DNA of 61,659 nt. Source: a bacterium (GTDB lineage: Bacteria > Patescibacteriota > Minisyncoccia > Phycocordibacterales > Phycocordibacteraceae). The notes below the pieces were generated by a model that did no database searches, was not told the origin of the DNA, and saw only the letters and a program-made list of their open reading frames with translations. Below are positions 3,552 through 61,164 of this stretch, piece by piece (within the stretch, counting starts at the first letter, position 1; the number at the start of each line of letters is the position of its first letter). A program made the position numbers and the translations under genes. The DNA lies in assembly GCA_021836725.1 (NCBI GenBank), contig JAKBHL010000014.1, positions 1 to 61,659 of the forward strand. Reading direction: 5' to 3'.

Positions 3552-3768
3552 TAGAACTCATTTCAAAACCCCATCTCCCCGCGAGAGGTATGCGGCAGAA
3601 AGGAGTACGCCGTCTTTTTGTGCTCAAAAGGTGGCTTGAACTTACGCCGTCGCGCTCCGTTCGGAACTTCGATCCAGAGACTAAATTATATGTTTAACAT
3701 TTAATTTAGGTTTCTAGAGAAGCCTCTTTCTGCCGCATACCCGAGCGGGGTTTTTGAAATGAGTTCTA
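3552..3768 (+). repeat. Foldback MITE/REPIN-like element, copy 1 (with AT-rich hairpin insert)
   Basis: 17-bp terminal IR TAGAACTCATTTCAAAA/TTTTGAAATGAGTTCTA; core shared with copies 2-5. Confidence 0.85.
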
Positions 3769-7487: not shown

Positions 7488-7640
7488 TAAAACAAAACCC
7501 CCCGCTCGGGTGTGCGGCGGAAAGGAGTACGCCCGTCTTTTTGTGCTCAAAAAGCGGCTCGTACTCGCGCCGTCGCGCTCCGTAAGCCTCTTTCCACCGC
7601 ACACCCCTCGCGGGGAGGCGAGGGGTTGGAATGGGTTTTA
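7488..7640 (+). repeat. Foldback MITE/REPIN-like element, copy 2
   Basis: Same core (GAAAGGAGTACGCC...TTTTTGTGCTCAAAAAGCGGCTCGTACTC...CCGTAAGCCTCTTT); TAAAAC/GTTTTA ends. Confidence 0.85.
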
Positions 7641-18407: not shown

Positions 18408-20054
18408 CTATAACAAGACGCATACGGACTCTCGACAGGGTCCCGAAGCAGGAGGCGTCGGATAGGGGTTTATTCCACCACCTTGGAAAGGTGGCAGGCT
18501 CGAAAGGGTCTCGAGAGTTCGAATCTCTCCGCCTCCGCAGATTGAAACTTCCCCTGGTGTGAGGGGCGCCGCGCGAAGCGCGGCGGAGGGGCGCTCGGGC
18601 AGACAACCGCGCCGCGTAGCGGCGAATGTGAATGGGGCGGCAACCGAAAAGCGCGGGGATGCGGCGTCCAAAACGGGGTTCGTTCCAACTTTCAGCACAA
18701 AACGCTTCAGCGCGCCCAAGTCGCCTGCTGAACTCAAGAAAGCGGCTTGTTTCATATCCAAAATCCATTCCCGCAGGGGTTCGACCCGATTCTTTCTCCC
18801 GCGTTCAACATCTTTCAATTCTGCACGTAAAGCGGCGAGAGAGCGCATCAAGGCGTCCTTCTTGGCGAGATAAATATCTTTTGGCACATCGCCATCGAGA
18901 TACGCCGAGACCAGTCTCTCCATGCGCTCCTCGTCCGCTTTGATCGATTCTGAAAGATGCTGAACCTCGCTTTGCGACGCCCCGACTTCTTCGCGCTCCC
19001 ATCTCTGCACTTCCGCGAGCATCCAGTCGGTGTACCGATCGCAAAGCGAGATTGATTGAAGCCGTGCTCGTATATGGTCGGCGAGGGCACTTTCCTGCAC
19101 ATACGGCTGTCCACATGCACCGCGCTTCTTGGAACAGCGATAGTACCGATAGCGGCCGCCGCACTTGCCGGTCGTCCACTGTGCGCTAATCATCCCGCCG
19201 CACTCACCACAGCGGAAGAGTCCCGTGAGCGGGAAATCGTGCTTCACCCGGCGAGAGCGCGGACGCTCCTTGCCCTCGACGACTTTCCGCACGGCTTCAA
19301 ACAATGCGGGAGTTAGAATCGGCTCAAAGCTTCCCTCAAACCATTCGCCATCGTGTTTGATGAAGCCGAGATACGCTCGATTGGTCAGCAGCCGTTTGAG
19401 GGAAGCTTTGGCAAGTGGCGTGCCATATTTCGTCACCACGCCCAAGTCCGCCAAAAATGCGCCGAGCGAGATGAGTGAGTGCGTCCCTTTGGCGTATTCC
19501 TCGTATGCGAGCTTCACGATACGCGCATTGGTCGGATGTGGCTCGATATTCCTCACGCGCGGATTGTTCTCATAGCCAAAGGGCGCACGATTGAGCCACT
19601 CGCCTCGGCGCAATTTCTGGCGGACGCCGCGCTTGATGTTCTCGCTCAAATTGTCTGAATAATATTTCGATTGCCCGAACGCCACTTGCAACATAAAGAG
19701 CCCCTGCGGGGTTGGAGAGAACCAAAAAGTCGGAAAGCGTAAAGACACGATCTTCGCGGTGTCCACGGCGTAGATGACGCGCCCACCGTCAATCGAGTTG
19801 CGTGCCAAACGGTCGGGGTGCCACGCGAGGATGCCCTGTGCCTCTCCCGCCTCAATGCGCGCCATCATCTCGCTGAACACCGTGCGTCCGGGCGTCTTTG
19901 CGCTTCTCGACTCTTGAAACTCCGCTAGGATTTCAAAATTTTCTTTACGCGCCAACTCGCGTAACTCTACGAGCTGCGCTTCAATACTCATCACCTGGCG
20001 GTCGTCATCCTCCGTCGATTTGCGCGCGTATAGAAAATATTTTGGTTCTCTCAT
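18408..20054 (-). CDS. Large serine recombinase (resolvase, recombinase and Zn-ribbon domains, coiled coil)
   Basis: LYARKSTEDDDRQVMSIEAQ; WHPDRLARN; CGECG...YYRC; the 3' end reads through attL and antisense across tRNA-Ser. Confidence 0.95.
   Translation of the reverse strand: MREPKYFLYARKSTEDDDRQVMSIEAQLVELRELARKENFEILAEFQESRSAKTPGRTVFSEMMARIEAGEAQGILAWHPDRLARNSIDGGRVIYAVDTAKIVSLRFPTFWFSPTPQGLFMLQVAFGQSKYYSDNLSENIKRGVRQKLRRGEWLNRAPFGYENNPRVRNIEPHPTNARIVKLAYEEYAKGTHSLISLGAFLADLGVVTKYGTPLAKASLKRLLTNRAYLGFIKHDGEWFEGSFEPILTPALFEAVRKVVEGKERPRSRRVKHDFPLTGLFRCGECGGMISAQWTTGKCGGRYRYYRCSKKRGACGQPYVQESALADHIRARLQSISLCDRYTDWMLAEVQRWEREEVGASQSEVQHLSESIKADEERMERLVSAYLDGDVPKDIYLAKKDALMRSLAALRAELKDVERGRKNRVEPLREWILDMKQAAFLSSAGDLGALKRFVLKVGTNPVLDAASPRFSVAAPFTFAATRRGCLPERPSAALRAAPLTPGEVSICGGGEIRTLETLSSLPPFQGGGINPYPTPPASGPCRESVCVLL
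18451..18537 (+). tRNA. tRNA-Ser(GGA); integration target
   Basis: GGAGGCG...CGCCTCC-G; anticodon arm CCACC-TTGGAAA-GGTGG; long variable arm. Confidence 0.93.
18535..18641 (+). repeat. att arm Y (107 bp), inverted copy of 20115-20221
   Basis: Base-by-base reverse-complement identity read by eye. Confidence 0.9.
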
Positions 20055-20114
20055 AAATAGATTTGGATTTGAAACAAGCGCTGTATCCCCGCGTCTTTTC
20101 GGTCTTGCCTTGCC

Positions 20115-20392
20115 GCCGCCCCATTCACATTCGCCGCTACGCGGCGCGGTTGTCTGCCCGAGCGCCCCTCCGCCGCGCTTCGCGCGGCGCCCCTCACACC
20201 AGGGGAAGTTTCAATCTGCGGTGAGATACTCACCTTTGCGCGAACCCACTTCGACAACCCAACGACCTAACGCGCCTCGGGCGCTCGCTCCGCTCGCGCA
20301 CATCCCGCGCCGTTTCCTTTGCATTTTTGTGCGGCTCCTCCCCCGACCCCTCCGCCGAAAGGCAAAAAATGATGGAAAAGGAAACGGCGCGG
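20115..20392 (-). repeat. Internal inverted attP-like junction: arm Y' (20115-20221) plus arm X' (20218-20392), overlapping at GCGG
   Basis: Left part is the reverse complement of 18535-18641; right part is the reverse complement of 25326-25500. Confidence 0.9.
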
Positions 20393-20411
20393 ATGTGCAC
20401 CTATTGAAATA

Positions 20412-20438
20412 TATCACAATATTGTGATACTTCACAAT
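20412..20438 (+). promoter_or_regulatory. Probable HTH (C-box-like) operator
   Basis: 18-bp perfect palindrome TATCACAATATTGTGATA (20412-20429), overlapping ATTGTGA-tact-TCACAAT (20421-20438), upstream of the XRE gene. Confidence 0.65.
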
Positions 20439-20462
20439 AATCTGTATGATTGTGGTGTGGAT

Positions 20463-20669
20463 ATGAGCACACCATCAACCAAACTTGGGAAAAACATCAA
20501 GCGCATTCGCGAACAGAAGAACATGTCGCAAGGAGACATATGCCGCGAAGTCGGTTTTGATCGTGCGCAGATGAGCAATATCGAGTCGGGCAAAGGAAAC
20601 CCCACCCTTGCGACGATAGAGAAGATTGCCCGTGCGCTCGGTGTCACGAGCGACGAACTGCTAAAATAA
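20463..20669 (+). CDS. XRE-family HTH regulator (RM controller-like)
   Basis: LGKNIKRIREQKNMSQGDICREVGFDRAQMSNIESGKGNPTLATIEKIARAL. Confidence 0.9.
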   Translation: MSTPSTKLGKNIKRIREQKNMSQGDICREVGFDRAQMSNIESGKGNPTLATIEKIARALGVTSDELLK

Positions 20670-20673
20670 ATTT

Positions 20674-21798
20674 ATGGCTAGAGAAGCATCAGTCAAAAAT
20701 CTTACGAATGCTAAACGGGCAAAGAACGATGAGTTTTATACTCAGTACATCGACATTCAGAAAGAAATTGAAAAGTATTTAGATTACAACCCTAATACAT
20801 TCCGAACTAAGGTAGTGTATTGCAATTGTGACGATCCCTTCGAGAGCAATTTCTTTCGTTATTTTGTTCTCAATTTCAACAAACTTGGATTGAAACAGCT
20901 TATCACCACGAGCTACAAGCCATCGCCTGTCGCAAACACACAATTAGGATTATTTGGCGACGACAAGACGTTAGGCACGCCAAAAGGTCGCCCAAAAATA
21001 ACCGCCAACAAATTTATTATCAATGAAGTAAAGGACATAGATGGCGACGGCGAGTTTAACTTGAAAGACGTTGCCAAACAGTTAAAGGCAAACAAAAACA
21101 ATGAATGGGCACCTCTGGCTGGCGACGGCGATTTCCGTAGCGATGAGTGCGTTGAGCTGCTCAAGCAGTCCGATATAGTGGTAACCAATCCGCCTTTCAG
21201 TCTGTTTCGTGAATATGTAAGGCAACTCTATGATTACAATAAAAAGTTTTTGATCATCGGTAATATCAATTGCATAACTTACAGAGAAATATTCCAAAAG
21301 ATCAAAGAAAACAGGGCGTGGCTTGGTAATGGAATGGGCAGATGGATTTCTGGGTTTATTGTACCCGAGTCCTATGACTTGTACGGGACAGAAGCTCGGA
21401 TAGATGAGAACGGAAACAGAATCGTTGCCACTAACAATTGTTTATGGCTCACCAATCTTGATCACGGACGTCGTCATCAACCATTGCCGCTTATGACCAT
21501 AGCGGAGAATTTGAAGTATAGTAAACATAAGGAAATCAGAGGTAAAGAATCATATGATACATATGATAATTACGATGCGATAGAAGTACCTTTCACCGAC
21601 GCAATACCAAGTGATTATAAAGGCGTAATGGGTGTGCCGGTTAGTTTTTTGGACAAATATAATCCTGATCAGTTTGAAATTGTCGGATGTTCTTATGATT
21701 ATGGAAGACCCGAAGGATGGGATAAGGATATCGATATGGCAGTCTCGATAAATGGCGTGAATGTGTATAAAAGGATATTAATCGAACATAAAAAATAG
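20674..21798 (+). CDS. Adenine-specific DNA methyltransferase, EcoRI family
   Basis: [37 protein letters not shown]. Confidence 0.9.
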
Positions 21799-21799
21799 T

Positions 21800-22969
21800 A
21801 TGAAAACAACTTTGAAAATAAATACTACCGTTAGGGAGATTTGCGACGGTTTCGTATATAACGAACTCGAAGGCAAAGGTTTGTTCGGTCTGTCTGGCAA
21901 GCTCACTATCCAGCCGGAATATCAGCGTAATTATATTTACGCCTCTGACGGCGGCAAAAGAGAAATGGCCGTCATTGAGTCAGTGCTCAAAGGGTATCCA
22001 ATAGGGTTGATCTACTTCAATGAAGTCTCTGCCGACAATCTAGAAGTTTTAGACGGGCAACAGCGCATCACCAGTCTGGGGCGGTTTGTGACTGATAAAT
22101 TTGCCATCAAAGACGAGAACGGGATGGAGCAATATTTTGGCGGCATGGCAAAAGACAAGCAAAAAAAGATTTTGGAAACGAAATTACTCATTTACGAGTG
22201 TGAGGGCACCGAAAGCGAAATAAAAGAGTGGTTCAAGACCATTAACATTGCGGGTGTGCCATTGAACGATCAAGAGCTTCTGAACGCCGTGTACTCGGGG
22301 CCGTTCGTCACGCTCGGCAAGGAAGAGTTTAGTAACAGCCAAAACGCCAATATACAGAAGTGGAGCGCGTACATTCGTGGTAGTGCCGCACGGCAGGAGT
22401 TTTTGGAGCGCGCGCTTGATTGGGTAAGCAAAGGCAACATTGGCGACTATATGAGCCGTCATCGCACCGACAAAAATATCACCGAACTCAAGACCTATTT
22501 CAAGAGCGTGATTGACTGGGCGTCCAGTGTCTTTACCGATGTAGAAAGTGAGATGAAGGGACTTGAGTGGGGCCGGCTCTATGAGGAGCATCACAAGAAG
22601 GCGTATAGTCCCGCGAAGGTGTCTGCTGAAGTACATAAACTCTACGCCGATCCATACATCAAAAATCGCAAAGGAATTTTTGAGTACGTTCTCGGCGGAT
22701 CTAGCGACACAAAGTTGCTAGAGGTGCGCGTGTTTGATGAGGCGACTAAAAAAGCGACCTATGCAACACAGACTGCGGCGGCGGAAAAGAAGCACGCTTC
22801 AAACTGCCCGCTCTGCGCGATTGGACACGATGCGAGCAAAGACAAGATTTGGAAACTAGACGAAATGGATGCCGACCACGTTGCGGCGTGGAGCAAGGGC
22901 GGCAAGACTTCCTCGAAAAACTGTCAGATGCTCTGCAAGACGCATAATCGAGCGAAAGGTAATCGTTAA
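21800..22969 (+). CDS. DUF262 (GmrSD-like) plus C-terminal HNH endonuclease
   Basis: [19 protein letters not shown]; CPLC...DADH...[14 protein letters not shown]. Confidence 0.88.
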
Positions 22970-23051
22970 AATCGCAAGAGGGCTTAAGGCTTGTAAAATA
23001 AGCCCAAAATGTTGGTTAAATAGAAAAAAGACAATTTTCTGTCTAAAATGC

Positions 23052-23080
23052 TTGACTTTTAAAACAAGTAGGAATACAAT
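23052..23080 (+). promoter_or_regulatory. sigma70-type promoter for the ATPase pair
   Basis: TTGACT-17 nt-TACAAT. Confidence 0.6.
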
Positions 23081-23119
23081 GTCTGTATTAATACAAAATA
23101 ATGTCATTATACCAAGATT

Positions 23120-24394
23120 ATGTTAATAACAAGAATTAAGGCTAGCAACTTCTACGGGATAAAAGATCCTGTTGAAGTGTCGTTCACCGAAGGCGGCGAA
23201 AAAGAAAAAATAGGATATGTAAATTTCGGGAAAGAGAGAATCTCTCTTATCTCTGGTTTTTATGGTGCCAATGCGTCAGGTAAAAGTACCATATTAAACA
23301 TTATCGATACTGTAGCCAGAATAATGGTCGCGAAACAACAAGATTTTGTACTTGCTCCTAACGGGATAAAACAAGAGGTCGTTATATCTCTTCCAAACTT
23401 TACAACTGCGATGCAGACGAAACCCATTGTAATGGAGATGGATTTTATTATTGGAGACGATAAATATAATTATTCAGTTTCTATCATAAATGAGGGTAAG
23501 GAAATTTCAGAAGAAGTTTTATACAAAAATACTAAAAAAATCTTCAGTAGAAAAGATCATGGTATTTCGTTTGAAAGCAAAATTGGAAAAAATATAGATG
23601 CTTTAGCTAAAAATATCGTAGCACCAAAGAAATCTTCTTTTCTCTCTGTTATTTTAGATGACAGCTCTGATGTTTCTGTATTCGCAAACATCAAAGAAGA
23701 AATTGGAATTTCTAATCTTAACCAAATAAAGACCAATTTCTGTTTTATTACTGATAAGCGTTCGGTTCAGATGGGGCAAAATAATCTTAACGGGTTACTT
23801 GCTTTTGCAATTAACTATCTCAATAGCAATACTCAAAAACAGAGCGAAATGCTTGGTGCAGTTAATTCTGTAGTAAAGTATTTTGAGCCATCTTTTGAGA
23901 GTCTTGTTATCAAAAAAGAAAGTGATGTTAACCCAATAAACAAATCTTTCGCCTTTACCTACGAAGCAAAATATAAGGACTTCTATAAAAATCTTGGTAC
24001 CACAGAACTCTCTGCTGGAACGCGAGAACTCATCGCGTATATAGGAGATATTCTTAGAATATTAAAAGTGGGAGGCGTTGTTATCTACGACGAGACAAGC
24101 AAGTTTTATCACCCAGATATGGAGATTGCTATTCTCAACCTCTTTAAAGACAAAGACATAAACAAGAAAAATGCCCAATTATTCTTTTCATCACACAATC
24201 ACGAGACATTTGACCTCTTACAGAATGATCAGGCACACATTGTAGAAAAGAAAGATGGCAATATTGTTGTGTCAAAAGTGTCAGATTACGATGTTAAAGA
24301 AAGAGATAACATAAAGAGAATCTATCGTCTCGGTTCGCTTGGAGGCATACCAAATACTATTGATTTCAGTAGGATTATAAATAATCTCTTATAA
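23120..24394 (+). CDS. AAA/ABC ATPase, RloA/AbiEii-like
   Basis: GFYGANASGKST; ELSAGT; IYDE...FYHP; QLFFSSHN; YRLGSLGGIP; very AT-rich. Confidence 0.82.
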   Translation: MLITRIKASNFYGIKDPVEVSFTEGGEKEKIGYVNFGKERISLISGFYGANASGKSTILNIIDTVARIMVAKQQDFVLAPNGIKQEVVISLPNFTTAMQTKPIVMEMDFIIGDDKYNYSVSIINEGKEISEEVLYKNTKKIFSRKDHGISFESKIGKNIDALAKNIVAPKKSSFLSVILDDSSDVSVFANIKEEIGISNLNQIKTNFCFITDKRSVQMGQNNLNGLLAFAINYLNSNTQKQSEMLGAVNSVVKYFEPSFESLVIKKESDVNPINKSFAFTYEAKYKDFYKNLGTTELSAGTRELIAYIGDILRILKVGGVVIYDETSKFYHPDMEIAILNLFKDKDINKKNAQLFFSSHNHETFDLLQNDQAHIVEKKDGNIVVSKVSDYDVKERDNIKRIYRLGSLGGIPNTIDFSRIINNLL

Positions 24395-24398
24395 GCTT

Positions 24399-24971
24399 AT
24401 GCCTAAAAAGAAAAGCTTTAAGATATATTATTTACTACTCACCGAAGGAACAACGGAATTTAATCTTTTTGGTTATTTAACAACCAATAAGTTTAAAGGA
24501 GACTTTGAGGGTTCTAATGTTCAATTTAGTATCAAGGTTGAAATTGTAGACGCTGGAATCTCACAAGGTAAATTAAACGGAGTTGGAAATGGCACTTCTT
24601 TTAAGACCAAATATGACTCGATTAAAGACGATACTAGATATGTTGGTCAAAAATTATTCTTTGTGATAGATAAGGATTTTGACGATTCTTTGCAAGTAAA
24701 AGAGCTTATAGAAAAAGATGGCAATATCGTCCAGTTTGTTGAATATAATTCTGAACATCTATTGTTAAGATTTGGAGGCAAGAACCCCAGGAATCCTAAA
24801 GATTTTAAAAATATGGGAGAGTTTAGAGATTATTGCAAGAACGAATTTGAAAAACAGTTCAATAAGAAAGCCTCAGAGTTTAAAGATGCTGATTTCGATT
24901 CAATATTTGCAAATACTACAGACGATGCAGTAAAGAAAACTTTTGTTGAATTGTTTTCTACCCTGTCTTAA
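24399..24971 (+). CDS. RloB-like (Toprim-like) partner protein
   Basis: N-terminal LTEG and a VIDKD acidic motif; directly follows the ATPase. Confidence 0.6.
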   Translation: MPKKKSFKIYYLLLTEGTTEFNLFGYLTTNKFKGDFEGSNVQFSIKVEIVDAGISQGKLNGVGNGTSFKTKYDSIKDDTRYVGQKLFFVIDKDFDDSLQVKELIEKDGNIVQFVEYNSEHLLLRFGGKNPRNPKDFKNMGEFRDYCKNEFEKQFNKKASEFKDADFDSIFANTTDDAVKKTFVELFSTLS

Positions 24972-25325
24972 TTTATAAAGGGAGCCGCCCGCTGATGCGG
25001 GCGGGCTTGCGCGCGCACTGGGTGGGCGGGGCAAGCGCACACAGATTGCTTGTGCCCTTCGGTAGTTGGGCACAATCCGCTTTTTGAGTTGGCACCGGCT
25101 CGACCGAAGTCGCCGAGCGAACACGGAGCCGCACCGAACAGGCATCGCGAGCGAATGCGAGCGGCCTGTGCGAGGTGCGGGCGTAGTGTGAGCGGACGCT
25201 AGAGCTACACCAAATGTGGCTATGGGAGCGCCTCGTCCGCCACGAGGACGGAGAAAGCGGAGATTGGGAGCAATGGATACTTTGCGACCTTTCGGAGCTT
25301 TAGGAGGACGAAGTGGCGGGGCAGA

Positions 25326-25500
25326 CCGCGCCGTTTCCTTTTCCATCATTTTTTGCCTTTCGGCGGAGGGGTCGGGGGAGGAGCCGCACAAAAATGCAAA
25401 GGAAACGGCGCGGGATGTGCGCGAGCGGAGCGAGCGCCCGAGGCGCGTTAGGTCGTTGGGTTGTCGAAGTGGGTTCGCGCAAAGGTGAGTATCTCACCGC
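25326..25500 (+). repeat. att arm X (175 bp), inverted copy of 20218-20392; ends at the attR core CCGC
   Basis: Reverse-complement identity read by eye. Confidence 0.9.
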
Positions 25501-25539
25501 CGACATGAAAATAAGCGCCATTAGGCGCTATTTTTGTCG

Positions 25540-25582
25540 GCGGAGGCGAGCCCTGCCGGGGGCAGGGCGTGAGAGATTCGAA
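25540..25582 (+). repeat. Anti-tRNA-Ser module a
   Basis: GCGGAGGCG + hairpin + GAGAGATTCGAA is the reverse complement of tRNA 18518-18538, split by a hairpin. Confidence 0.75.
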
Positions 25583-25744
25583 GACCTTGCGAGCATTTTA
25601 TGAAGCGAAGCGAACAGAAAATCCGCAAGGTGTACTGAAACTGTATGAGGACATACATCTTCTTCGTTCGGCGTTAAATAATAATTGGTTCATCATTATT
25701 TAAGCCTCACTCATCACTGTAAGTTTCGAAAAGCGTAACCGCGG

Positions 25745-25826
25745 TCTCTCCGCCTCCGCAAAACAAGTCTGCACAGTTTTGCGGAGGCGAGCAAGGCGTC
25801 TGCACGCCTTGCGTGAGAGATTCGAA
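25745..25826 (+). repeat. 16-bp copy of the tRNA-Ser 3' end followed by anti-tRNA module b
   Basis: TCTCTCCGCCTCCGCA is identical to 18524-18539; followed by GCGGAGGCG + hairpin + GAGAGATTCGAA. Confidence 0.8.
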
Positions 25827-45457: not shown

Positions 45458-45599
45458 TAGAACCCATCTCAACCCCCCCTCGGGTATGCGACAGAAAGGA
45501 GTACGCCGTCTTTTGTGCTCAAAAAGCGGCTCGTACTCGCGTCGTCACGCTCCGTAAGCCTCTTTCTGCCGCATACCTCTTGCGGGGAGATGGATTCTA
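45458..45599 (+). repeat. Foldback MITE/REPIN-like element, copy 3
   Basis: TAGAACCCATCTC...GAGATGGATTCTA ends; conserved core. Confidence 0.87.
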
Positions 45600-47854: not shown

Positions 47855-48061
47855 TGAACCCACCTCAAACCCCCGCGAGGGATATGCGACAGAAAGGAGT
47901 ACGCTGTCTTTTTCTGCTCTAAAAGTGGCTCGTACTCGCGTCGTTACCACAGAGAGTACTTCCAAGTTTCTAATTCGCTCCGCTCATAAGAAACTTTTGG
48001 TCGCGCAGCTCCGTAAGCCTCTTTCTGCCGCATATCCCTCGCGGGGGAGCAGAAGGTTTTG
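47855..48061 (+). repeat. Foldback MITE/REPIN-like element, copy 4 (with hairpin insert)
   Basis: Conserved core plus a ~55-60 nt insert containing an AAGTTTCT/AGAAACTT stem. Confidence 0.85.
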
Positions 48062-59264: not shown

Positions 59265-59350
59265 GGAGGCGTCGCATAGTTGGTCTAGTGCGCCGGTTTC
59301 GAAAACCGGTATACCGCAAGGTATCGTGAGTTCGAATCTCACCGCCTCCG
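59265..59350 (+). tRNA. tRNA-Ser(CGA)
   Basis: GGAGGCG...CGCCTCC-G; CCGGT-TTCGAAA-ACCGG; long variable arm. Confidence 0.93.
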
Positions 59351-59526
59351 CAAACAAAAACATCCCGTTCGGATAGAGCCGCGCGCGGGGTTGATGCGGT
59401 AGAATTAGTAGAATTGACGGGAGTTTGGGTTCAAATTCTTTTCAGCTCCAGGGCCGGTTGAATAAAAAAAGAGCCCGCGAGGTTAGCCAAGCGGGCTCTG
59501 TCATTTGATTGAAGATTCTACACGGT

Positions 59527-61020: not shown

Positions 61021-61164
61021 CAGAACCCCCCCGCGAGGGATATGCGGCAGAAAGAGGCTTACGGAGCGTGACGACGCGAGTACGAGCCGCTTTTTGAGCA
61101 CAAAAAGACGGCGTACTCCTTTCTGTCGCATACCCGAGCGGGGGAGGTGGCGGGACGGATTCTA
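61021..61164 (-). repeat. Foldback MITE/REPIN-like element, copy 5
   Basis: Core nearly identical to copy 3, on the minus strand; TAGAATCC...GGTTCTG ends. Confidence 0.87.

Follow-up and report, generated by a model that had tools for sequence, protein, structure and literature searches.

We describe here an integrative defence island of about 7 kb from a Patescibacteria genome, whose integrase gene, int, receives a different 3' end on integration into a tRNA gene. The window analysed is the whole 61,659-nt stretch of contig JAKBHL010000014.1 (positions 1 to 61,659, forward strand; GenBank assembly GCA_021836725.1; Patescibacteriota, Minisyncoccia, Phycocordibacterales, Phycocordibacteraceae). 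To judge from its sequence, the island is located at 18535-25500, at the 3' terminus of tRNA-Ser(GGA), and its insertion is attributed to its own large serine recombinase (LSR), Int. The reading that we favour, with a probability of roughly 45%, is that Int is a self-modifying integrase: integration would probably weaken or destabilize the protein, a second, inverted copy of attP would serve as the leader and operator of int while storing its native 3' end in silent form, and rare flipping would be possible.

Comparison of the three attachment sites gives the element order attL–int(−)–attP(inverted)–cargo–attR. A repeat search found two inverted repeats that share the core: repeat 1 pairs 18535-18641 with 20115-20221 (107 nt, 100% identity, with a chance expectation far too small to account for it), and repeat 2 pairs 20215-20392 with 25326-25503 (99% identity). 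The 107-nt perfect repeats bracket int and the repeats of about 175 nt bracket the cargo. The attL site reads tRNA end–CCGC–P' arm and attR reads P arm–CCGC–flank, with both cores in direct orientation, while 20115-20392 is the exact reverse complement of P arm–CCGC–P' arm. Because repeats 1 and 2 overlap at the core, 20115-20392 is a full inverted attP. A preliminary description, made from the letters of the window, had called this stretch an internal junction; it does encode the alternative tail proposed there, but it amounts to an entire attP in inverted orientation, a second repeat surrounds the cargo, and the layout is found across the family. The features of the island and its target are as follows.

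18451-18538, + strand: tRNA-Ser(GGA), target of the integration and left intact; the crossover core is formed by its four terminal bases (ARAGORN; Rfam tRNA clan match).
18535-18538, + strand: attL (S1) core CCGC, made up of the last two acceptor bases, the discriminator G and the next C; the sole block common to attL, the internal attP and attR.
18408-20054, − strand: LSR gene in its integrated form, 548 aa (open reading frame, Pfam, homologues, Foldseek).
18408-18533, − strand: non-native tail of 41 codons plus TAG, antisense through the tRNA and its leader (translation; predicted disordered, predicted local distance difference test [pLDDT] score 30-35).
18539-18641, unstranded: P' arm (A), with Int residues ~472-506 and two GC-rich hairpins; left arm of inverted repeat 1 (repeat search, hairpin analysis).
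20055-20114, − strand: spacer with the ribosome-binding region, from the upstream repeat arm to the int ATG (sequence; spacer typically 24-27 nt in relatives).
20115-20392, unstranded: S2, the complete inverted attP, comprising reverse-complemented P' arm (20115-20217), core GCGG (20218-20221) and reverse-complemented P arm (20222-20392) (overlapping inverted repeats, site alignment).
20222-20270, + strand: silent native tail, 15 codons (EILTFARTHFDNPTT) and a stop, in frame with the preceding 36 repeated codons (translation, family conservation).
20393-20463, unstranded: AT-rich divergent promoter-like region with the palindrome TATCACAATATTGTGATA (promoter scan; similar regions in relatives).
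20464-20669, + strand: XRE/C-protein-like helix-turn-helix regulator, divergent from int and adjoining S2 (domain search; conserved neighbour).
20674-24971, + strand: low-GC cargo genes (GC profile, domain search).
25326-25496, + strand: P arm, right arm of inverted repeat 2, with a mimic of the tRNA T-loop, GGTTCGCGC, and, in antisense, the codons of the native tail (repeat search, site alignment).
25497-25500, + strand: attR (S3) core CCGC, in direct orientation to attL (site alignment).
25501-25545, + strand: B' flank with the displaced bidirectional terminator hairpin of the tRNA, stem 25514-25529 (hairpin analysis).

The reading frame at 18408..20054(−) contains Resolvase, Recombinase and Zn_ribbon_recom domains (Pfam). 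The Resolvase catalytic domain (PF00239, E 4e-22) covers residues 7-153, and Int also matches PF07508 and PF13408. In an alignment of homologues (A1), the nucleophilic-serine motif YARKS13T is nearly invariant and Cys282/285/307/314 are invariant; long helices at 340-442 in the predicted model fit the inserted coiled coil of the LSR class. With an AlphaFold2 model of a 75%-identical homologue, the best Foldseek match was the SPbeta integrase (E 1e-14), followed by those of LI, Bxb1 and phiC31; the structures matched for the LSR class were 9y66, 4kis, 9iu2 and 9tep. Homologues number in the thousands (more than 4,700 were scored), and the closest 120, with 65-83% identity, come from Patescibacteria. 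A phage origin is not evident, since an IMG/VR scan with the single protein found nothing and a profile scan gave one distant match.

The crossover core falls at Int codons 506-507, within the last codons of the recombinase as the preliminary description had placed it. Minus-strand translation gives ...EVSICG followed by the 41 residues GGEIRTLETLSSLPPFQGGGINPYPTPPASGPCRESVCVLL*, which match letter for letter the antisense-tRNA tail described there; the TAG stop is the reverse complement of 18408-18410 and overlaps a TATAAC at 18409-18414. As a −10 element of the tRNA, also proposed earlier, TATAAC has plausible spacing (TTGGAA-18-TATAAC) but is absent from the promoter-scan calls. On the plus strand, 20115-20270 encodes AAPFTFAATRRGCLPERPSAALRAAPLTPGEVSICG, which equals the last 36 codons repeated, followed by EILTFARTHFDNPTT* with its stop at 20268-20270, so that the repeated C-terminus of about 35 aa and the different 15-aa tail also read as first described. 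Around the crossover, the native form is ...EVSICG|EILTFARTHF..., and the integrated form continues after the cut with Gly-Gly-Glu-Ile-Arg-Thr....

Alignment of homologue C-termini, the check that had been suggested, showed conservation as far as EVSICG and then a division into classes, with two kinds of tail of which the native one is conserved. About 70% of homologues end in antisense-tRNA peptides (for example GGIRTLE...), and about 11% carry the tail [E/D]-[I/V/L]-[L/I/V]-x-F-A-R-T-[H/F/Y]-F, with a stop 13-31 residues past the core. The remainder enter the P arm of another subfamily, which marks tandem arrays. The tRNA-derived tails of homologues stop after 5 to about 80 codons, which makes the read-through of the whole tRNA in the window incidental.

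Codon usage in the native tail was compared across 32 distinct attP sequences, in all of which (32/32) the frame is open through the tail. Entropies at the three positions of the acidic (E/D) codon are 0.20/0.34/1.93. The two aliphatic (I/L/V) codons have a fixed T at position 2 and vary at positions 1 and 3, with five synonymous Leu codons, and the CGA of the tail Arg is invariant. The invariant CGA codon indicates a recombinase-binding constraint on the DNA, and the period-3 pattern with synonymous changes indicates protein-level selection besides. The alternative tail EILTFARTHFDNPTT is, on these codon patterns, the native and selected one, with the binding site and protein-level selection both acting on it. 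In the AlphaFold2 model of a native-tail homologue, a 21-residue helix (501-521, pLDDT 91-93) spans the crossover; in the integrated form from the window, the helix stops at residue 505 and residues 502-548 have pLDDT 30-35. Integration is thus predicted to halve a conserved C-terminal helix and to swap its distal half for a glycine-rich antisense-tRNA peptide. The earlier proposal that the integration state rewrites the C-terminus is upheld; the native tail varies with codon periodicity across the family and completes a helix, predicted at pLDDT above 90, whose loss is predicted for the integrated form.

When the sites are aligned in int-sense orientation, the P' half ends in ...GAAGTTTCnnTCTGCGG, the P half begins with TGAnnTAnTnnCCTTTGCGCGAACC... 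and the tRNA half with AGnGGGnGGGATTCGAACC..., and the flank half is unconserved. Across tens of loci, the distance between CGAACC and the core is 13 nt on the tRNA side and 19 nt on the P side. Work on the LI integrase reportedly places the zinc-ribbon-domain motif some 5 bp more distant from the centre in attP than in attB; the 13- and 19-nt distances fit this rule of LSR sites, with the P arm mimicking the tRNA T-loop. Located at tRNA positions 71-74, the core covaries with the target, being CCGC for Ser and GCAC for Leu and similar tRNAs. When the sites were examined for dyad symmetry around the core, the left half-site proved to be dominated by coding constraint. Crossover occurs after tRNA base 74, and CCGC is the only sequence repeated at the island ends, in place of the direct repeat of tens of bases typical of classical tRNA islands. 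With only four bases shared, the target is not duplicated and the tRNA is left whole. The small common core, the lack of target duplication and the outward displacement of the attP motif relative to attB are all those of LSR sites. According to the 2014 Islander survey (PMC4383910), serine integrases were not known to target tRNA genes. The aligned sites also include hybrid P–core–P' junctions between subfamilies, which hint at relaxed partner choice.

Other tRNA-like sequences are present in the window. A second tRNA-Ser (CGA; 59265-59351) has a near-identical 3' half, likewise ends in CCGC and is unoccupied, making it a potential second attB on the chromosome that also carries the intact internal attP. 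Downstream of attR, two inverted copies of the tRNA-Ser 3' half (GCGGAGGCGAG…CGTGAGAGATTCGAA; 25540-25582 and 25781-25826) are each interrupted by a GC-rich hairpin and fold with their flank as long hairpins (z = −4.8 and −6.3); a direct 16-nt copy of the tRNA 3' end is found at 25744-25762. Fragments resembling tRNA ends occur beyond attR in 5 of 26 related loci and may be relic or disabled att sites.

To place the window among its relatives, 80 loci from species-representative genomes, 80 from metagenomes and three others were fetched and classified by self-comparison. An inverted repeat flanks int in 131 of 164 loci, with arms of at least 100 nt in 105 and a modal length of 131 nt; in the 33 loci without it, int is mostly cut by the contig end. 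Among loci with intact int, the repeats are 100% identical in 47/97 and at least 99% identical in 69/97, and repeat identity showed no clear difference between these and loci with a broken int gene. Both repeat pairs are present in 42 loci, the second with a median length of about 245 nt and 100% identity in half of them; through its proximal arm it shares 4-17 nt with the first pair. The cargo measures 0.13 to 8.2 kb, and the layout is retained even where Int identity has fallen to 42% (L077). An antisense tRNA adjoins the 3' end of int in 83 loci (Ser 55, Glu 10, Arg 8, Ala 6, Gly 2, Leu 1, Tyr 1). Two loci, L042 (OY970382.1) and L069, have an int 3' end that abuts neither an ARAGORN tRNA nor a recognizable P arm. 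Gene conversion between close inverted repeats would suffice for the near-perfect identity of arms of 100-400 nt, and their retention across the family implies a function.

Chimeric assembler joins could in principle create inverted duplicates, and the arms are indeed near typical k-mer lengths, with many contigs breaking there. The same layout is nevertheless found in more than 100 independent assemblies from different assemblers, with repeat boundaries at conserved positions. These include long-read (Nanopore-derived) assemblies and the closed chromosome OY970382.1 (L038, L042, L074), which show that the layout is not an artefact; we consider that explanation scarcely credible. A literature search found no description of this architecture.

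The position of the inverted attP would fit a regulatory role. The distance from the inner end of S2 to the int ATG is about 24-27 nt in most loci and 60 nt in the window, a spacer so short that the int promoter must lie inside or beyond the inverted attP. Beyond S2, the region 20404-20450 holds the perfect 18-bp palindrome TATCACAATATTGTGATA, which looks like an operator, within overlapping divergent promoter-like hexamers. A promoter scan of 20393-20463 gave a leftward TTGTGA-18-TATATT that would drive int transcription through S2, and comparable AT-rich regions with promoter-like sites are found in relatives. A transcript starting beyond S2 would have the whole attP as its leader, including 107-131 nt complementary to the 3' coding end of its own mRNA. 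No large palindromes adjoin S2 in the loci that lack the second repeat.

The P' arm itself contains two hairpins at fixed positions (18560-18625 in the window; 88 distinct related arms compared). At least 6 bp are paired in 65 of the 88 distinct arms versus 2% of shuffles; the stems comprise 34 and 21 distinct sequences, with TTC and GAA predominating in the loops. The conserved F-V/A-A-x-R-R codons are overlapped by one of the two, and an Ala/Val change there is offset by a synonymous Arg codon. These features show selection on nucleic acid structure inside the coding sequence. An Rfam search of the arms returned tRNA matches and chance microRNA matches only.

The perfect inverted repeats that bracket exactly int in 131 loci raise the question of a programmed switch, in which Int or RecA would often flip int between the 107-131-nt repeats, toggling its tails and alternating between the XRE-controlled promoter and read-through from the tRNA. 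In favour of such a switch, the cargo is flipped, with the regulator next to attR, in L117, L145 and perhaps L069 (2-3 of 35 elements), and L082, which has the same kind of cargo as the window with int pointing into it, is the opposite int/cargo isomer. Against such a switch, the assembled contigs run consistently from the tRNA through the arm to the int 3' end, and a tRNA abuts the 5' side of int in none of the 83 tRNA-linked loci. Switches of the Hin/Gin/Cin type and shufflons have both orientations coexisting or alternating among close relatives, a pattern that int does not show in these assembled loci. The inversion-state switch of the preliminary description is not supported by this count, and frequent programmed flipping is improbable.

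Related loci also include other arrangements. In L081, int is flanked on both sides by a 399-nt full attP with no tRNA, as a circular or array form predicts; terminal direct overlaps, expected of circular contigs, were found in 0 of 163 loci. In four loci (L003, L034, L057, L074), 3-4 segments bounded by repeats form an array in which hybrid P–core–P' junctions occur; this implies either that an element integrated at an attR or attL already in use or that elements recombined with one another. The tandem arrays combine two integrase subfamilies, about 42% identical, with the P arms TGGACGAAGTTCGAATG and CCTTTGCGCGAACC.

Public runs containing the window sequence are available as k=31 Logan contigs, which do not span the 107-nt arms but give depths and joints. 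In one public sample, cargo depth is about half that of the chromosome. Run X4 contains the same chromosome with int and the repeat arms kept and the cargo absent, its P arms being joined at the mirror positions 20369|25349 (…GGCAAAAAA|TTTTTTGCC…). Relative to this cargo-less variant, the window cargo is bounded by 23-nt perfect inverted repeats (TGATGGAAAAGGAAACGGCGCGG…). In the same run the P arm is also joined to a P' arm of the second subfamily, at window position 25501. Further arm variants were 20327 / 25391 and 20253→20332. The empty-site joint 18538→25501 was not seen in these contigs.

Segments of this kind might be independently mobile modules: a circle with a palindromic att site would acquire terminal inverted repeats on insertion at its core, and serial insertion would build arrays. 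The arrays of 3-4 segments, the hybrid junctions between subfamilies, the populations that keep int with cargo at half depth or absent, and an identity block limited to CCGC, for which two of three possible central dinucleotides are self-complementary, are all compatible with it. Palindromic A'-core-A or P-core-rcP (reverse-complement P) junctions were not seen, however, the cargo-less variant joins inner P-arm ends and not cores, and palindromic circles leave the 100-400 nt of identity unexplained; we regard such modules as very improbable. Single-stranded fold-back or hairpin integration was rejected as the origin of the repeats, as its products would be inverted chromosome duplications.

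The cargo has a GC content of 32-49%, versus 55-60% for the host. Domain searches identified the XRE/C-protein-like regulator, an EcoRI-like N6-adenine methyltransferase, a GmrSD_N+HNH nuclease with a match to a model of type II restriction enzymes, and an AbiLi-like ATPase paired with an AbiLii-like protein. Of 41 cargo segments, 35 have an XRE-like gene, which in 32 cases adjoins S2 and points away from int. The domain search recognized no gene resembling a recombination directionality factor (RDF) among the cargo proteins, in agreement with what the preliminary description had noted, and the Int tails here carry no recognizable degradation tag.

Elsewhere in the window, a dispersed repeat family of about 80-190 nt with the core CCCCGCGAGGGATATGCGGCAGAAAGGAGTACGCCGTCTTTT is found at 3568-3760, 7491-7640, 45471-45593, 47862-48047 and 61026-61150. 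At least five copies are present, in both orientations and with internal inverted repeats, and they may represent either a small mobile element or a family of structured RNAs in this genome.

We propose the following model of a self-modifying integrase. In the attP-linked state, Int would end in the conserved helix, with attP lying inside the int 3' end. Integration would cut that helix at the crossover and append the antisense-tRNA peptide, giving a weakened or altered Int; convergent tRNA transcription and a stop codon beyond the tRNA would add to the weakening. The outcome would be a self-limiting integrase, comparable to Mx8 IntP→IntX and to the gene-splitting SSV-type integrases. The inverted attP, placed between the int ribosome-binding site and the divergent promoter region of the XRE regulator, would most likely be the transcribed leader and operator of int, and would preserve the native int 3' end in silent form. 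The inverted repeats may make int and cargo two segments of a two-isomer architecture like that of the 2-micron plasmid, and inversion of the int segment would restore the native gene, now placed downstream of the tRNA promoter.

Several observations weigh against this model. The tail swap could be neutral. Part of the conservation of the native tail is imposed by the recombinase-binding motif in the DNA, and the gap in AlphaFold2 confidence comes partly from alignment depth (72 versus 32 sequences; overall pLDDT 78 versus 67). Of 105 integrated copies, 97 have an intact int gene; the integrated form is therefore more than a discarded remnant. With no flipped int among the 83 tRNA-linked loci, reactivation by inversion is unsupported by static data. 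A leader or operator role alone does not need 285-400 nt of perfect identity, and about five loci with adequate flanks (including L013, L068, L070 and L143) lack the repeat.

The main rival reading is a neutral overlap, in which attP would sit in the int 3' end through genome compaction only, the isoforms would behave alike, tail conservation would reflect the P half-site, and the inverted attP would have an unrelated role, for example in flip-flop isomerization or copy control of a circle, as FRT repeats have in the 2-micron plasmid. The invariant CGA-ACC codons do coincide with the T-loop-like binding motif, tail length past the motif ranges from 13 to 31 aa, integrated copies retain an intact Int, and L081 and L082 are compatible with circular two-isomer forms. 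A purely neutral overlap is nonetheless less likely than the self-modifying model: the E/D and I/L/V codons, which show the period-3 pattern and its synonymous changes, are not part of the invariant motif, the helix that crosses the crossover point is predicted with high confidence, and the tail frame is open in every distinct sequence compared.

A bolder extension of the self-modifying model would make the element a directionality system without an RDF. The DNA state, attP-linked or tRNA-linked, would set the Int isoform, the inverted attP would make int and cargo flippable or exchangeable cassettes, and the three sites would control integration, locking, reactivation and cargo turnover. We consider this extension rather unlikely; if true, it would be a new organizational principle for serine-integrase elements and would reveal a natural family of tRNA-directed LSRs with T-loop-mimicking attP sites. 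LSRs are leading genome-engineering tools, and the control of their direction is an active structural question. If the isoforms differ, the element has a built-in sensor of its integration state that works without a directionality factor, and a three-site layout that drove flipping or cassette exchange would account for the turnover of defence cargo in the tiny genomes of Patescibacteria.

Among known systems, myxophage Mx8 is the closest precedent for an integration-coupled change of C-terminus. In the accounts that cite Tojo 1996 and Magrini 1999 (PMC6070905, PMC4383910), attP lies within the Mx8 int gene near its 3' end, and integration at a tRNA locus gives a new C-terminus with changed properties (IntP/IntX). 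The element described here likewise has its attP core inside the int reading frame, and its attP-linked and integrated genes encode different C-termini across the family; the change in protein properties is Mx8's. Mx8 differs in using a tyrosine recombinase, and those accounts describe neither an inverted second attP nor a repeat-bracketed int, whereas here the enzyme is an LSR from a large Patescibacteria family. The 'suicidal' SSV-type integrases of archaeal viruses and plasmids, as outlined in PMC7253208, have the recombination site within the int reading frame, and integration alters the gene. As outlined there, they belong to the tyrosine family and the gene is split into two inactive halves, whereas here the last ~15 residues are exchanged and the frame stays open.

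In mycobacteriophages of clusters G, N and P, according to what Broussard et al. are said to have reported in 2013, an att core inside a gene swaps C-terminal residues and changes protein stability. In that integration-dependent immunity, the repressor is rewritten and loses an ssrA-like tag through a tyrosine integrase; here, the integrase itself is rewritten. Canonical LSRs (phiC31, Bxb1, A118/LI, SPbeta) are alike in domains, fold, the few shared central bases, the motif placed further out in attP and the lack of target duplication. They target protein-coding or intergenic sites, have attP outside int and need an RDF for excision; unlike them, the present element targets a tRNA 3' end, has a T-loop-mimicking attP inside int and keeps a second, inverted attP. 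Two further systems resemble parts of the layout. In the 2-micron plasmid, two identical FRT sites for Flp in long perfect inverted repeats split a small circle into two invertible segments, and in Tn3, the res recombination site between divergent genes doubles as an operator. They belong to another enzyme family and to the small serine resolvases, respectively, involve no tRNA integration and rewrite no coding end. What appears to be new here, to judge from the literature search, is a tRNA-targeting serine-integrase island with attP inside int and a conserved three-site layout bracketed by inverted repeats.

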